Assembly (NCBI GenBank): GCA_902521955.1
Contig: CABYTP010000001.1
Coordinates: 18,097-82,096, forward strand
DNA: 64,000 bases
Direction of reading: 5' to 3'
Source of the DNA: an uncultured Candidatus Actinomarina sp.
Lineage (GTDB): Bacteria; Actinomycetota; Acidimicrobiia; Actinomarinales; Actinomarinaceae
A program made the translations under genes and the position numbers. Positions 11,163 to 54,900 of this stretch are shown here, one piece after another. The notes beneath the pieces were generated by a model. The model worked only from the letters and a program-made list of their open reading frames with translations, had not been told where the DNA came from and made no database searches. Within the stretch, counting starts at the first letter, position 1. Each line of letters opens with the position of its first letter.

Positions 11163-11190
11163 CCCATAAAGAGGCACCCGAGTTTTTGTG
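11163..11190. terminator. GC-rich hairpin GGGTGCC-N9-GGCACCC immediately 3' of rnpB; a T5 run follows on the plus strand
   Basis: 7-bp perfect stem seen directly in the sequence. On the minus strand it abuts the rnpB 3' end and may act as a processing or termination hairpin. The T-run exists only on the plus strand, where there is no upstream plus-strand gene. Confidence 0.4.
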
Positions 11191-11515
11191 AAACTATAAG
11201 CCGGATTCTGTATACGAAAAACGTATGATAATCATCCATCTTGTGTAATTGTTACCAAATACATCTAGCTACTTACCCGCAATTATTAACCGAGCAGGCT
11301 AATTGCTTCTTAGTATTGCTCCAAGAGGGGTTTACAAGCTAATTTGATTACTCAAATTACTGGTGGTCTCTTACACCACCTTTTCACCCTTACTTATTTT
11401 CATAAGCGGTTTGTTTTCTGTTGCACTATCCGTCAATTACTTGCCTGGGAGTTACCCAGCTCTTTGCTCTGTGGAGTCCGGACTTTCCTCGATAAATCGC
11501 GATTATCCGTTTCAC
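11188..11515 (-). ncRNA. rnpB: RNase P RNA (bacterial type A, compact)
   Basis: On the minus strand: the P4 5' strand GAGGAAAGUCCGGACUCC, GGGUGAAAAGGUGGUGUAAGAGACCACC matching the consensus GGGUGAAA.GGUGCGGUAAGAGCGCACC, the 3' consensus ACAGAAUCCGGCUUAU, and a perfect 7-bp P1 between GUGAAAC at the 5' end and GUUUCAC at the 3' end. Confidence 0.85.
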
Positions 11516-11537
11516 ATACTTAGTTTACATAGTAAAT

Positions 11538-35414: not shown

Positions 35415-35762
35415 ATGGCGTTAAACAAAAAAGAACAAGAAATCTTGAATCAGATAGAGCAGGAGCTTTTGAAAGATGATCCAGATCTAGCAAATACTGT
35501 TAAAGAATCTACACTCTCGAAATATACTAGAACAAGAGCTGTCATCTCTTTTTTTGTTTTCTGTGTTGGGCTTCTGACCATGTTTAGTACATATATAGTA
35601 CAACCCACTATTGCTCTTGTCGGCTTTGCAGTTATGGCATTAGCAGCTTATATTTTTGTTTCCAATACTAAGGCTTTATTAAATGCAGAAAATATTAACG
35701 AGTGGAATTTTAAACAGGTTTATACCGTTCTAAGAAACAAAGATAGCTCTAGACAAAGTTAA
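35415..35762 (+). CDS. DUF3040-family membrane protein
   Basis: N-terminal KKEQEILNQIEQELLKDDPDL helix followed by two TM segments, as in the actinobacterial Rv2169c-type proteins near mraZ. Confidence 0.6.
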   Translation: MALNKKEQEILNQIEQELLKDDPDLANTVKESTLSKYTRTRAVISFFVFCVGLLTMFSTYIVQPTIALVGFAVMALAAYIFVSNTKALLNAENINEWNFKQVYTVLRNKDSSRQS

Positions 35763-35812
35763 AAAATTTAATTAAATTAAATATACATCAAATTTTTTTT
35801 AGGAGTAAGGTT

Positions 35813-36304
35813 TTGAAAAAGGATGCATTTACATCTAAGCAGGCATGCTATTTATCTGGCTGCACTTCACATCAATTACGTTATTGGGACAAGGTAAATC
35901 TAGTAAATCCATCTATTCAATCTTCCAAAGGTAAACCGGGAGTTCCTAAAATGTATTCATTCAGGGACATTGTAGCCTTAAGAGTTATTAAGACTCTCCT
36001 AGACAATGGAATGAGTATTCAGAGAGTCCGAAGGGCGTGGAAATATTTGTCTAAAAATGCAAACCTAACTCATCACTTGTCTGAAGTCCGTCTTGTTTCA
36101 GACGGAAGTACAATATACTCAGTTGAAGATGATGAAGTCTTTGATGCTTTAAAAAATGGTCAATTAACATTTTTTGAAACTATAGATAGTATCACTCAAG
36201 ATGTTAAAGAAGATGTATCTAAATTTGAGTTAGATAAAGAAAGATTTTTAAATTTATTGACTAAAGTAGAAGAAGATGTACTTAGTCAAGAACTTCAAGC
36301 ATAA
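35813..36304 (+). CDS. MerR-like HTH DNA-binding protein (Rv2175c-like)
   Basis: MerR HTH pattern LRYWDKVNLVNP...YSFRDIVALRVIKTLLDNGMSIQ. Confidence 0.6.
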   Translation: MKKDAFTSKQACYLSGCTSHQLRYWDKVNLVNPSIQSSKGKPGVPKMYSFRDIVALRVIKTLLDNGMSIQRVRRAWKYLSKNANLTHHLSEVRLVSDGSTIYSVEDDEVFDALKNGQLTFFETIDSITQDVKEDVSKFELDKERFLNLLTKVEEDVLSQELQA

Positions 36305-36330
36305 TTTACAATCTAAATTGATTTACCATT

Positions 36331-36843
36331 ATGGAAAAATTTCTTAGCCACCGCACATTAATTTTGAATTCAACTTTTCAGCCACTTTCTGTTGTATCAT
36401 ATCGAAGAGCAGTTTCACTTATGTTAAACAAAAAAATTCATTCGCTTGAAGACTCAAAAATAGTTTTTAAATCAGAAAAAACTAAAATAAATTTACCAAA
36501 TGTTGCCCTTTTAAATTATTTTGTTAATGCTCCATACTCTAGAAGAGTTGCTTTAAATAAAGAGAATATTTTTATTAGAGATTTTCACACTTGTCAATAT
36601 TGTGGGGGTGTAGCAGAGTCTGTTGATCACATTATTCCAAAATCAAAAGGAGGAGAACACATTTGGAGTAATGTAGTAGCTTGTTGCAAAAAATGTAATC
36701 TCATTAAAGCTGATAAAGATTTGCTAAATACAAGGCTTAAATTAATTAAAACACCAGAGCATCCTGTTGGTGCATTTTGGGTAAAAACCATAGTCGGTTC
36801 TAATCCTGATCCTTCATGGAGTAAATATCTAAAGTCAGCTTAA
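36331..36843 (+). CDS. HNH endonuclease-domain protein
   Basis: CQYCGG...DHIIPKSKGG...N...CCKKCN HNH zinc-finger motif. Confidence 0.75.
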   Translation: MEKFLSHRTLILNSTFQPLSVVSYRRAVSLMLNKKIHSLEDSKIVFKSEKTKINLPNVALLNYFVNAPYSRRVALNKENIFIRDFHTCQYCGGVAESVDHIIPKSKGGEHIWSNVVACCKKCNLIKADKDLLNTRLKLIKTPEHPVGAFWVKTIVGSNPDPSWSKYLKSA

Positions 36844-36863
36844 AAAATTTTTATCCAAAAGTG

Positions 36864-36892
36864 TTGCATTGTGGTAGATAGTGTCATATAAT
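36864..36892 (+). promoter_or_regulatory. Sigma70-like mraZ promoter: -35 TTGCAT, 17-bp spacer, -10 TATAAT
   Basis: TTGCAT at 36864-36869 and TATAAT at 36887-36892, about 37 nt upstream of the GTG start of mraZ. AAAGGCGGA Shine-Dalgarno at 36915-36923. Confidence 0.6.
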
Positions 36893-36928
36893 GTATAAAA
36901 GTGGTTCAAGGCACGAAAGGCGGATAAA

Positions 36929-37354
36929 GTGTTCCTTGGTGAGTTTCAACATACAATGGACTCTAAAGGTAGGGTAGTAATACCCTCAAAATTTAGAACA
37001 AGGCTTCAACAGGGCTGTGTGGTCACCAAGGGGCAAGATAATTGTCTTCAGATACTTACAAAAAAGACATGGGAAGAAGAAGCTTCAAAGATGGCTTCAC
37101 TTCCTTCTACAGATCGAACATCTAGACAATTAAGAAGAGCATTATTCAGTGGAGCTATTGATGTAAAAATTGATTCTGCAGGACGAGTACCAATCCCAGA
37201 AAACCTAAGAGAATATAGTGGAATTGATCTCAATGAGGAAGTAACTGTAACAGGTTCTGGACCCGTAGTTGAAGTATGGTCAACAAGAAGCTGGAAAAAA
37301 ATTCAAAAAGAAGCTGACCAATCATTTGCAAATATTAACGAGGTGAAAGAATAG
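36929..37354 (+). CDS. mraZ: Transcriptional regulator MraZ
   Basis: MFLGEFQHTMDSKGRVVIP (GTG start), with a duplicated DxxGR motif in the second half (DSAGRVPIP). Confidence 0.9.
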   Translation: MFLGEFQHTMDSKGRVVIPSKFRTRLQQGCVVTKGQDNCLQILTKKTWEEEASKMASLPSTDRTSRQLRRALFSGAIDVKIDSAGRVPIPENLREYSGIDLNEEVTVTGSGPVVEVWSTRSWKKIQKEADQSFANINEVKE

Positions 37355-37362
37355 GTTCATAG

Positions 37363-37439
37363 CCAGCTCTCTAGACAACTAAATTGGAACACCCTTACTC
37401 CGCCCAACTTTCCAATTGGTGCCAGTTCTAGAGAGCTGG
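37363..37439 (+). promoter_or_regulatory. Extended stem-loop in the mraZ-rsmH spacer (13-bp stem, internal loop, 8-bp stem, 20-nt loop)
   Basis: CCAGCTCTCTAGA (37363-75) pairs with TCTAGAGAGCTGG (37427-39). AATTGGAA (37382-89) pairs with TTCCAATT (37410-17). The structure ends 2 nt before the rsmH ATG. Confidence 0.55.
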
Positions 37440-37441
37440 GT

Positions 37442-38356
37442 ATGAATGAAAACAGGGCTGGGTATTTAGAACACGAAGGGGTGATGTTAACTGAAGTAAA
37501 TTCAGTAATTTCAAGTACACCCCCAGGTATTTTTGTAGATGCAACTTATGGATATGGTTCTCATTATAGAAATATCAAAGATAATTTTTCTGAATTAGAT
37601 CTTTTAGCTTTTGACAGAGATATTGATGTTTTAAATAATTCTAATTCTGAAATTGTTCATTTAAATTTTTCTCAAATTTCTGAATATCTTATAAACAATA
37701 ATATTGATAGGATTTCAGGGATTTTATATGATTTCGGCGTTTCTTCTCATCAATTAGATAATTATACAAGAGGTTTTTCATATTCTAATGATGGCCCTTT
37801 AGATATGAGAATGAACCAGAATGATGAAATTAACGCTTTTGAAGTCGTAAATAAATTTAATGAAATTGAAATTGCAAATATTTTATTTCAAAATTCTGGA
37901 GAAAAAAATTCACGGCGGATTGCAAGAGATATCGTAAGTTCTCGGCCTATTGAATCCACACAGGAACTAGTGAATGTTATTAAAAATTCTATAGGTAAAC
38001 AAAATCCAAAGTATATTTCTCAAACTATTAAACGTTGTTTTCAATCATTTCGAATTTATGTAAATGATGAGTTGAATGAAATACAAAAGTCTTTAAACAG
38101 TATTAAAAACTTTGTTGAGACAAACGGTGTAATTATCTGTTTAACTTATCACTCACTTGAAGATAAAATCGTTAAAAAAATTTTTACTGAATTAACCACC
38201 TCTTGTTATTGCGACGTTTCGATCCCGGTATGCACTTGTAAAAATGAACAACTATATGCATATGGTAAAAAAAAGAAAATTTATCCTTCAGGTAAAGAAA
38301 TATCAAAAAACCCAAGGTCATCATCGGCAACTCTTAGATATGTGGTTAAGTTATGA
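37442..38356 (+). CDS. rsmH: 16S rRNA (cytosine1402-N4)-methyltransferase RsmH (MraW)
   Basis: SAM-MTase motifs DATYGYGSH and GILYDFGVSS. Position after mraZ supports the call. Confidence 0.85.
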   Translation: MNENRAGYLEHEGVMLTEVNSVISSTPPGIFVDATYGYGSHYRNIKDNFSELDLLAFDRDIDVLNNSNSEIVHLNFSQISEYLINNNIDRISGILYDFGVSSHQLDNYTRGFSYSNDGPLDMRMNQNDEINAFEVVNKFNEIEIANILFQNSGEKNSRRIARDIVSSRPIESTQELVNVIKNSIGKQNPKYISQTIKRCFQSFRIYVNDELNEIQKSLNSIKNFVETNGVIICLTYHSLEDKIVKKIFTELTTSCYCDVSIPVCTCKNEQLYAYGKKKKIYPSGKEISKNPRSSSATLRYVVKL

Positions 38357-38676
38357 AGTTTAGGAATTTATTATTTTCATTTATTACAATTTTCATAATT
38401 TCCATGGTCTCAAATTTATACTTTAACTTAAAAATTAATACCCTTTCAGAGGAACTTTCTTCTTTAAAAACTGAATTAGTTGAATTAGAAATTGATAAAT
38501 CAAATACTCACCTTATGTACATTGAAAGTTTTTCAACAAGCAATATGGAAATACTTTCCAAAAGTATGAGCTATAGAAGATTAGACATTCACAATAAGAA
38601 TATAGATTTGGTCAAACCATATAAGTTAGAGGATGAGGATAAACCAATTGTAGTTTTAGGTTTTGGTGGAGGATGA
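38353..38676 (+). CDS. ftsL: FtsL-like cell division protein (small bitopic membrane protein with a coiled coil)
   Basis: 107 aa with an N-terminal TM segment and a leucine-rich coiled coil. Positioned between rsmH and ftsI, with ATGA overlaps on both sides. Confidence 0.5.
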   Translation: MKFRNLLFSFITIFIISMVSNLYFNLKINTLSEELSSLKTELVELEIDKSNTHLMYIESFSTSNMEILSKSMSYRRLDIHNKNIDLVKPYKLEDEDKPIVVLGFGGG

Positions 38677-51984: not shown

Positions 51985-54900
51985 TTTATTTATAAAAATA
52001 TCAATTTTTCTATTTAGAATTTCATTTTTCCCGTCACTCTTTTTGATTACAAGGTCAAGTGACAAAGTTTCACTCATAACATAAGATTCATGTTTATTAA
52101 TTGATTGAATTACAAAATCATCTTTAGTGTGAACTTGTAATTCAATCCTATCTGTAACATCTAATCCTGTATCTTTTCTAGCTTGTTGAATAGTTGATAC
52201 CAGTTCTCTAGAGAATCTTTCCATTAGAAGATCATCATTTAAATCTGTATCTAAATAAATCAAAAAGTCATCAACAATATCTTGATTTGGTAAATCTTTT
52301 TTTGGTTTTAACTGAATTTCTATATCTTCGTTTTGAAGTTCAGTACCATCAATTGAAATTGTTTTAAGGTCCAATATTTTTATACTCTCTTCGGGACTAA
52401 GATTTTTTAATTTTTTTGCAATATTTCCAACTTGTTCACCCAATCTCGGACCCAATTTCTTGTAATCTGGTTTAAAAATATAGTCAACCCATTGGTTTAT
52501 TTGAACATCAAATTCTACATTTTTTACATTTATTTCATTTTTTATCAAGTCGCTTATATTTGAAAGACGTTTTTCAATTTTTTTGTCATTAGTTACAATT
52601 TTTACAGAATTTAGTGGTTGCTTATTTGGAAGTTTTAACTTAACTCTTAAGTTCCTAACACTTTTAATTACTTTTTTTGCTAATTCAATATCATCTTCAA
52701 GTTCAAGATCAATTAGGTTTTGATTAGATATAGGATAATTCTCATAATGTATACTTCCATTCTTTTCATCATTTAAACCTTGGTATATTTTTTCACAAAT
52801 AAATGGCAACACTGGCGCCATTGATTTTGTAAATTCAGTTAGAACCTCATGAAGAGTTTTAAAAGCATTTATTTTATCAATATCATTCTCATCTTTTTCC
52901 TTCCAAAATCTTTTTCTATTTGACCTCACATACCAATTCGTGAGTTCTTCAACAAAATTCATAAGCGGGGGAATAACTTCGTAAAGATAGTAGTTTTCCA
53001 TTTTTTCATTTACTGTCTTAATTAATGATTGAAGAGATGAGATAATCCATCTATCCATCATTGCTCTTTCTTCTACTGGTAAAGCTTTTTCTAAATCCTT
53101 AAATGTAATTTGATCAGCATTTGCATAGGTTGAGAAAAAAGAAAAACTATTCCACAATGGAAGAATTATATTTCTAGTTACTAGTTGAACCCCTTCTTCA
53201 GAAAATTTTAATGGTTCACCCCTAACTACTGGTGAATTAATTAAGTATGCTCGCAAACTATCACCACCATAAGTGTTAAGTAATTCCTCCGGATCAGGAT
53301 AGTTTTTTAAACTTTTACTCATCTTTCTACCATCTTCAGCAAGTATCATTCCTGTTGTTATACAATTTTTAAAAGCAACAGAGTCAAATAAAGCAACAGC
53401 TAAGACCGTTAGTGTATAAAACCATCCACGTGTTTGATCTAAACCTTCTGCAATAAAATCAGCAGGAAATCCCTTATTAAAATCATCTTCATTTTCAAAT
53501 GGATAGTGTTGTTGACCATACGGCATAGATCCTGATTCAAACCAGCAATCAAGAACTTCAGTGGTTCTTCGATAAGTTTTTCCATCAATTTCAATTTCTA
53601 GATCATCAAGAAAATGTCTGTGCAAATCAGTTATTTTTTCATTTGTTAATTTTTCAAGTTCTTCAACTGAACCAATACATATTTTGTCAGATGAATCATC
53701 AACATTAATCCATACAGGGATACAGCTTCCCCAGTATCTATTTCTACTTATTGCCCAATCTCTTGCGTTCCCAAGCCAATTTGAAAATCTTTTATCTCCA
53801 ATAAATCCTGGAACCCAGTGCGTAGACTTATTAAGTTCAACCATCCTATCTCTTATTTTTTCAACACTTACAAACCAAGTAGGTATAGCTTTATAAATTA
53901 ATGGTGTTCCTGTTCTCCAACAAAATGGGTAAGAATGCATTTCTGTTTTTTTGCTAAAGAGATTACCCCTCTCTTGAAGCTGGTCCATAATAATTTTATC
54001 TGCGTCTTTTACATTAAGATTTTCTAATTCAGAAAATGTACTATCAAATTTTCCTGATAATGTGACTGGGTCAGCAATTACTTCAATACCAGAATTTTTA
54101 AGGGCATAGAAATCACTTTCTCCATATGCGGGAGCTTGGGATACTAAACCTGATCCGGATTCAGTATTTGTATCGTCACTGTGAATTAACCTGAACGCAC
54201 CATCATCAAAAAGATGTTCGTACTCAGAATAAGCTGGTACGTATGTAGCACCTACTAATTCTGAACCAATGCATTCCTCAATAATCTCAACGTCATAATT
54301 ATCTAATTCAATGACCCTTTCGGTAGCAATCCAGTAAACACTGTTTCCAATTTTGACTCTTGTATAGTTAATATCTTTTCCAATAGCGATTGCTAAATTT
54401 CCGGGAATGCACCAGGGGGTTGTAGTCCAAATTAAAAATTTATCTCCTTTACTGACTTTTTTGAAATCTTCCCTTGCTTCAAGGGTAAAGTAAATTGAAG
54501 GATCTTCTACATCTCTATAATCCATATTTGCTTCAAAATTAGATAGAGGTGTTGATGCTGCCCATGAATATGGTAAAACTTTATAATCTTGATATATTAA
54601 ATCTTTTTCCCAAAGCTCTTTAAACACCCACCACACGCTCTCCATAAAATCAATATCCATAGTTTTATAATCATTTTCGAAATCAACCCACCTACCAATC
54701 TTTCTGGTAATCCTTTCCCAGTTTTCAGTATTTGTTTGAACTTGAGTTCTACATGCTTCGTTAAACTTATCAATACCGTATTCATCAATTTGTTGGGGAT
54801 CCTCTAAATTAAGTTTCTTTTGGACTTCCATTTCAATAGGAAGACCATGAACATCCCATCCAAACCTTCTCTCTACGTAATAACCTCGCATCGTCCAATA

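Follow-up and report, generated by a model that had tools for sequence, protein, structure and literature searches.

The mraZ-rsmH locus

The sequence analysed in this work (the window) is a 64-kb stretch of DNA with 31% GC from a marine low-GC actinobacterium. Seawater contigs, those of TARA among them, and the NCBI assembly GCA_902519215.1 encode a MraZ protein identical to the one encoded here. The element that is the subject of this study lies on the forward strand in a gene cluster with the order mraZ, RNA element, rsmH, a 107-aa ORF, a PBP/transpeptidase gene and a Mur ligase gene. The mraZ gene (36929-37354; Pfam PF02381) starts with GTG and ends with a TAG stop codon (37352-37354), which adjoins the first base of the hairpin. 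The next gene, rsmH (mraW; 37442-38356, forward strand; PF01795), codes for a protein of 304 amino acids, a member of the 16S rRNA m4C1402 methyltransferase family, and is followed on the same strand by an ORF for a small membrane protein of 107 amino acids in the position of ftsL (38353-38676). There are 4-nt overlaps both at the junction of rsmH with the ftsL-position ORF (ATGA, 38353-38356) and at the junction of this ORF with ftsI (38673-38676). Judged from the overlapping coordinates, the ftsL-position ORF is probably translationally coupled to rsmH.

The true start codon of rsmH is the ATG at 37442: the N-terminus that begins there has the pattern MN.NR..Y..H..VM, which is common to RsmH relatives down to 40% identity, and with this start the His conserved in the RsmH family is codon 11. 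Several public gene calls run rsmH upstream through the RNA element (L099:2016-2963, L102:1988-2956 and L103:1892-2989, predicting proteins of 315, 322 and 365 aa, respectively). The proteins of these extended calls, and also protein P0123, start with MVPVPRELG..., a false N-terminal extension that hides the non-coding element. Such gene calls are frequent in public data and should be corrected.

Some other features were noticed in the same DNA. The promoter and leader of mraZ (36860-36928) contain GTG[GT] boxes phased at exactly 10 bp (GTG at 36861, 36871, 36881 and 36901), and amid them a perfect TATAAT (36887-36892). This stretch is nearly identical in locus L017, despite the MraZ proteins being only 76% identical, and in L103 there are five GTGG boxes upstream of mraZ. 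The phased boxes look like a MraZ operator. Upstream of mraZ, synteny is kept across the Actinomarinales-type loci (35415-36843 in the window; L001-L016), with genes for a DUF3040 protein, a MerR-family regulator and a protein with an HNH endonuclease domain preceding mraZ. Elsewhere in the window a full-length RNase P RNA of the bacterial class A was found on the reverse strand (11181-11518; 279 bits, E = 4e-90).

Anatomy of the hairpin

An earlier note on this DNA had described the spacer between mraZ and rsmH as a structured RNA, consisting of a perfect 13-bp stem (CCAGCTCTCTAGA, 37363-37375, with TCTAGAGAGCTGG, 37427-37439), an 8-bp inner stem (AATTGGAA, 37382-37389, with TTCCAATT, 37410-37417) and a pyrimidine-rich loop of 20 nt, the 3' arm stopping 2 nt before the ATG at 37442. 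All these features are present in the sequence, and 15 of the 20 loop nucleotides (37390-37409) are pyrimidines. What had not been noticed is a basal tier, in which GTTCATA (37355-37361) pairs with TATGAAT (37441-37447) across a G.G mismatch (37362/37440), therefore the start codon of rsmH is itself paired. With this tier the element is a multi-tier hairpin of 93 nt (37355-37447, forward strand), and the covariance model built from the family described below matches it at 37345-37456 with 66.5 bits (E about 1e-13).

In the minimum free energy fold the 5' side of the hairpin begins with the P1 strand GUUCAUA (37355-37361), whose CAU pairs with the AUG of rsmH, and continues with the P2 strand CCAGCUCUCUAGA (37363-37375), the P2b strand ACUAA (37378-37382), a bulged A (A37383) and the P3 strand UUGGAA (37384-37389). 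The apical loop, the core of which (CCCUUACUCCGCCC, 37392-37405) is essentially invariant in the family, is followed on the 3' side by UUCCAA of P3 (37410-37415) and UUGGU of P2b (37416-37420), and then by an asymmetric bulge, GCCAGU (37421-37426). The P2 3' strand UCUAGAGAGCUGG (37427-37439) contains a purine-rich run, AGAGAG (37430-37435), in the position of a Shine-Dalgarno (SD) sequence 6 nt before the AUG, and the P1 3' strand UAUGAAU (37441-37447) contains the start codon of rsmH (37442-37444). The inner register of this fold (ACUAA/UUGGU and UUGGAA/UUCCAA with a bulged A) differs slightly from that of the 8-bp stem described earlier, and the relatives support the register of the minimum free energy fold.

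The calculated energy of the fold is -39.6 kcal/mol (z = -5.4), and none of 200 dinucleotide shuffles was as stable. The continuous helix is 20 bp long in the window (7 + 13 bp with the one G.G mismatch), and among the inverted repeats of the window this is the sole pair of 20-nt arms with 95% complementarity. An intrinsic terminator or attenuator would be expected to show a GC-rich hairpin with a U-run. The earlier note had seen that no T-run follows the hairpin and that it is not a simple terminator, which was borne out: the mraZ-rsmH spacer contains no T-run and no terminator-like or promoter-like site, and coding sequence begins inside the 3' strand.

A family of rsmH leaders in the Acidimicrobiia

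The family has 93 recovered members, which belong partly to marine Actinomarina-like genomes of low GC content and partly to high-GC Acidimicrobiia. The element is a conserved RNA leader of rsmH throughout the Acidimicrobiia, including the marine low-GC Actinomarina-like lineage. The nearest relatives, 14 loci with identical or nearly identical MraZ (L001-L010, L013-L016), have an identical element with identical immediate flanks. Next come three loci in which RsmH is 79%, 62% and 50% identical to that of the window and the rsmH DNA 81%, 68% and 61%: here the element is identical in 93/93, 92/93 and 91/93 positions, respectively. Over all Actinomarinales-type loci the identity of the element is 91-93/93, compared with 60-88% (nucleotide) and 50-87% (protein) for rsmH, thus the element is far more conserved than either flanking gene. 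The stems, too, are almost invariant in these loci (91-93/93 for window positions 37355-37447 against L011, L017 and L097) at an RsmH identity of 50%. The near-invariance of the stems within the Actinomarinales exceeds what a hairpin alone would require.

Distant relatives were reached by walking out along MraZ homologues. In these protein-retrieved members (MraZ 44-68% identical, GC content up to 70%) the architecture is kept while the stems differ. Two loci with MraZ about 67-68% identical (L099 and L100) have CUCCCUAG/CUAGGGAG in place of CUCUCUAG/CUAGAGAG, a compensatory exchange, and in their inner stem an A-U pair is replaced by U-A. The high-GC Acidimicrobiia loci (L102-L104, L225-L227 and L231/232; MraZ 44-50% identical) have the same architecture with wholly different stems, the P2 strands being, for example, CCCCCCGG/CCGGGGGG, and retain the loop core CCCUUACUC(C/U)GCC(C/U) and the unpaired CCAG. 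Beyond 19 perfect bp the high-GC members carry an additional outer tier of 7 bp (P0). The stability of the hairpin ranges from -39 to -73 kcal/mol across the members.

The earlier note had suggested a covariation analysis of relatives, and this analysis supported the structure. For the count of covariation 90 distinct members were aligned with MAFFT, which takes no account of structure, and a structure of 39 pairs was used. In this alignment 89.8% of the cells are paired, compared with 34-47% when the 3' partners are slid, and 22 of the 39 pairs changed on both sides (249 cells). The covariation score was 0.261, whereas slid partners gave 0.06-0.11 and shuffles 0.16; none of 500 shuffles reached the observed value. 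A model-based alignment gave the same picture of pairing and covariation. Overall, 22-23 of the 39 pairs show compensatory changes. P2 shows compensatory changes in relatives, and helix 2 (the P2b/P3 region) is 91% paired with five pairs changed on both sides. Since G.U pairs outnumber A.C combinations about 3:1 in the family (293 vs. 106), and the covariance model scores 66.5 bits on the sense strand of the window but 27 bits on the antisense strand, the constraint must act on the sense RNA and not on a DNA palindrome.

The unpaired parts behave differently from the covarying stems: the apical loop core CCCUUACUC(C/U)GCC(C/U) and the CCAG of the 3' bulge are invariant across a range of 31-70% GC. 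A scan of metagenomes with a loop-plus-bulge pattern returned 120 loci, of which 94 have the full hairpin and 26 are bare matches without the hairpin or either gene. All 94 true members are located between mraZ and rsmH, directly before rsmH, or are cut by the contig end. It must be noted that the loop and the GCCAG bulge were built into the search pattern, so in these 94 loci their invariance holds by construction; the loci that count as evidence are the 12 found by protein similarity alone, and in all of these the loop core and the CCAG bulge are invariant.

The RNA element appears, from the loci sampled, to be confined to one clade. In L228-L230 (MraZ 42% identical), L049, L051, L059 and L082 there is no element, the gap between mraZ and rsmH being at most 13 nt or the genes overlapping. 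Among the matches listed in a scan of a genome collection with an RsmH alignment, which were mostly from unrelated phyla with L017 alone being useful, the sampled Thermoleophilia, Coriobacteriia and other actinobacterial classes had no spacer and no element.

Copy number was determined with the covariance model (R1). There is one copy in the 64-kb window, whether the filters are on or off, and exactly one copy per locus in the 93 related loci (615 kb in total), always directly before rsmH. The earlier note had proposed to search for copies of the 13-mer as a test of a dispersed repeat; in the 64-kb window the search returned the two arms of the hairpin and one further match with one mismatch, CCAGTTCTCTAGA at 52200-52212 (forward strand), which has no inverted partner and no model match and is a chance match. 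The idea of a small inserted repeat thus failed, with one copy in the window, one per locus in the related DNA and always the orthologous position.

Position of the rsmH start codon

In all members the alignment columns of the start codon pair with CAU or CAY in the 5' strand (columns 14-16). These same paired columns hold ATG in 77 and GTG in 16 of the 93 members, always in the 3' strand of the basal helix, and in 92 of the 93 the start codon is in frame with the N-terminal H..V[ML] motif of RsmH, which follows within 5-15 codons. The purine-rich, SD-like run is inside P2, 6 nt upstream of the start, and is AGAGAG, AGGGAG, GGAGGG or GGGGGG in different members. It covaries with its partner, as the combinations AGAGAG/CUCUCU, AGGGAG/CUCCCU, GGAGGG/CCCUCC and GGGGGG/CCCCCC show. 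The folded hairpin is thus predicted to bury the initiation region of rsmH, both the SD-like run and the start codon. The earlier proposal of a dedicated structured RNA which takes up the whole spacer and blocks the initiation region of rsmH is in this way strengthened by conservation, covariation and the fixed placement of the start codon in the helix.

The distance to mraZ is not fixed. From the mraZ stop codon to the helix it varies between -9 (overlap) and 260 nt, the median being 22-30 nt, therefore the element is anchored to rsmH and not to mraZ. The stop codon abuts the helix in Actinomarinales-type loci only, in the window and six others, where it is 0-5 nt from P1 or inside it.

Relation to the mraW motif

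A connection not made in the earlier note is that with the mraW motif (RF01746), described in Actinomycetales as a three-stem hairpin whose internal loops are poorly conserved and whose terminal loop contains CUUCCCC (PMC2864571, Weinberg et al. 2010). The motif is always located before mraW, a membrane protein gene, ftsI and mur genes, and its function was given as unknown (PMC2864571). In the seed alignment CUUCCCC is present in every sequence.

The similarities to our element are considerable. Both occur in Actinobacteria as presumed leaders directly before mraW/rsmH of the same operon (rsmH, small membrane protein, ftsI, mur). Each folds into a single long hairpin in which internal loops separate several stems, and each has a conserved pyrimidine-rich apical loop (CUUCCCC there, CCCUUACUCCGCCC here). 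In either case the middle stem is rich in CUCU/CUCC on its 5' strand and in G on its 3' strand. The differences concern taxon, loop, bulge and start codon. The carriers are Acidimicrobiia here and Actinomycetales there; CUUCCCC is absent from our element, all 93 members of which have the core CCCUUACUC(C/U)GCC(C/U); CCAG is an unpaired bulge here, whereas the apical stem of RF01746 has GCCAGG as its paired 3' strand; and the start codon is always in the basal helix here, whereas in Corynebacterium glutamicum the annotated 5'UTR runs about 117 nt past the motif. The comparison was made with the curated Rfam model, as the 2010 seed realigned by MAFFT gave a poor register of the apical stem (61% paired).

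The RF01746 covariance model had no match at the gathering score in 23 sources, and no match at E<=10 on 301 nt around the element of the window or on 171 nt around that of L151, a consensus-like high-GC member. Searching Rfam 15 with the element returned no family match, only generic miRNA-hairpin noise. The element may be a relative or an analogue of the mraW motif, related by common descent or convergence, and is not a demonstrable member of RF01746. In the literature we found the mraW motif mentioned at the annotation level only, and we found no description of an rsmH leader of Acidimicrobiia.

Discussion

Among the three functions that the earlier note had put forward as candidates, translational control is the best supported, while the dispersed repeat does not agree with a single copy in an orthologous position. 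We think it fairly probable that the element acts in cis as a translational operator, controlling rsmH together with the coupled ftsL and ftsI genes, with its loop and bulge serving as the predicted docking site of a factor. Both the translational output and the binding of a factor by loop and bulge are what we infer from the anatomy of the hairpin. According to this model the operon mRNA would fold into one long hairpin composed of P1, P2, P2b and P3, with the outer P0 added in high-GC members. In the folded state the SD-position run and the start codon would be held in the basal 3' strand, and ribosomes could not start on rsmH and, because of the overlapping stop and start codons, probably not on the downstream ftsL-like gene and ftsI either. 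The invariant loop and the CCAG bulge would be the docking site of a putative trans-acting factor, probably a protein, and the docked factor would determine what share of the mRNA is opened or cleaved and what share stays closed. Because the helix seems too stable to breathe, an active opening step would be needed, and simple equilibrium opening is implausible. This stability, like the near-invariance of the stems in the Actinomarinales, counts against the model. In the Actinomarinales only, a ribosome terminating on mraZ would be expected to melt P1 and free the AUG, which would amount to a lineage-specific coupling of mraZ and rsmH.

Pairing partners of the unpaired parts were also sought. 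The search revealed neither an alternative fold nor a pseudoknot partner that is conserved in the family, and no antisense match to conserved rRNA. Pairing of the loop with conserved rRNA, or with the flanks in a pseudoknot, was no better than that of shuffles. The sole recurrent partner of the loop was a G-rich stretch of glycine codons in rsmH, and this match is probably compositional. An alternative pairing of the bulge, GCCAG, with GCUGG of the 3' strand was rejected, as the bulge is invariant while the stem covaries (GUCAG, GCCAG, UUCAG).

The alternative that we would take most seriously, though we regard it as rather unlikely, is that the element is primarily a processing site for RNase III, whose cut in the basal helix of 20-27 bp would detach the rsmH-dcw message from mraZ. 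That RNase III can activate occluded ribosome-binding sites is established, for example for E. coli adhE. The leader hairpins of E. coli adhE and rnc which are processed by RNase III resemble our element in having a helix of at least 20 bp that encloses the ribosome-binding site. The length of the helix, 20 bp in the window and 19 perfect bp plus the 7-bp P0 in high-GC members, agrees with the about 20 bp expected of such a site, and a stability of -39 to -73 kcal/mol calls for active opening. However, an RNase III site has no need for a 14-nt invariant loop or a CCAG bulge, and an invariant loop and bulge are not features of known RNase III sites. An RNase III cut would either unmask the SD run and the AUG, leading to activation, or destroy both, and it is compatible with a translational operator, being a plausible candidate for the mechanism by which the hairpin would be opened.

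It is also conceivable, though we consider it unlikely, that the operator is autogenous, i.e. that RsmH binds the loop and bulge as a mimic of the C1402 region of 16S rRNA and represses its own translation. Autoregulation through target mimics is known for rRNA-binding proteins and for the rRNA methylase ErmC. In operators of this kind (ribosomal-protein leaders, ermC, ksgA), as in our element, the gene codes for a protein that binds rRNA, a structured leader overlaps its initiation region, and a single-stranded recognition sequence in this leader is invariant. Of the proteins encoded in the operon RsmH alone binds RNA, the element is located at rsmH in every case, and the loop ACUCCGCCC(G) resembles nucleotides 1396-1405 of 16S rRNA, ACACCGCCCG, with the equivalent of C1402 being kept in every variant. 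When the loop ACUCCGCCCG is compared with the same 16S segment, CCGCCC(G) is common to the loop and positions 1399-1405. Nevertheless, unlike in the known mimics, this resemblance is without statistical support: 5-17% of composition-preserving shuffles match the 16S site (1381-1412) as well, and equal or better matches are present in 23S rRNA. Moreover, the loop of the Actinomycetales motif, CUUCCCC, has no equivalent of G1401. The E. coli enzyme methylates 30S subunits and not naked 16S rRNA (PMC2831307), thus it needs the assembled subunit, which is a further difference from the known systems. A broader proposal, that the loop and bulge are read by RsmH or by late 30S assembly intermediates so that maturation of the small subunit gates the translation of rsmH, ftsL and ftsI, is speculative and in our opinion has a small chance of being correct. 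If true, ribosome biogenesis would be linked directly, at the RNA level, to cell division throughout an actinobacterial class, some members of which are very small and very abundant marine bacteria.

We are similarly doubtful of the idea that translational coupling is the main function, with ribosomes terminating at the mraZ stop codon unwinding the base of the helix and licensing initiation on rsmH, by which the synthesis of RsmH would be tied to that of MraZ. It is consistent with the short stop-to-helix distances of the seven Actinomarinales-type loci mentioned above, and the hairpin does place the stop and start codons side by side. But elsewhere in the family the gap is much longer, and a ribosome stopping there would melt P1 alone and not the SD-containing P2. 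The distribution of stop-to-helix distances rules out termination coupling as a family-wide mechanism.

Very unlikely, in our view, is a role in trans as a processed small RNA, whose C-rich loop would pair with G-rich (SD-like) targets like the 6C RNA of Actinobacteria, or a role as a small-molecule riboswitch. The loop is invariant, exposed and rich in C and U and the hairpin is very stable, as one would expect of such an RNA, but in every member the 3' strand is the initiation region of rsmH, which argues for a role in cis. A search of the surroundings and of conserved rRNA gave no conserved complementary partner, and a single unbranched hairpin would be atypical for an aptamer. Finally, a palindromic repeat of the REP or MITE type, inserted before rsmH by chance, can practically be dismissed: the element resembles such repeats in its intergenic position and in the near-perfect inversion of its 20-nt arms, and there is the one-mismatch copy of the 13-mer at 52200, but this match has no partner arm, the 26 metagenomic matches away from rsmH are bare loop patterns, and instead of many copies at unrelated sites the 64 kb and 615 kb of sequence contain a single-copy element with covarying stems, in orthologous position across lineages in which RsmH is 40-50% identical.

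The translational operator that we favour would be a second, class-wide version of an mraW-type leader, with another recognition loop at the same address. Its mechanism would be unusually easy to read, with a helix whose stability is -40 to -70 kcal/mol enclosing both the start codon and the SD-like run in every case. The element heads a cluster of division and cell-wall genes, and it is 98-100% identical in nucleotide sequence where RsmH is 50% identical. Its carriers include Actinomarina-like bacteria, which are abundant in the surface ocean. The covariance model, the invariant 14-nt loop and the CCAG bulge offer a handle on the post-transcriptional regulation of rsmH and the dcw genes in these bacteria.
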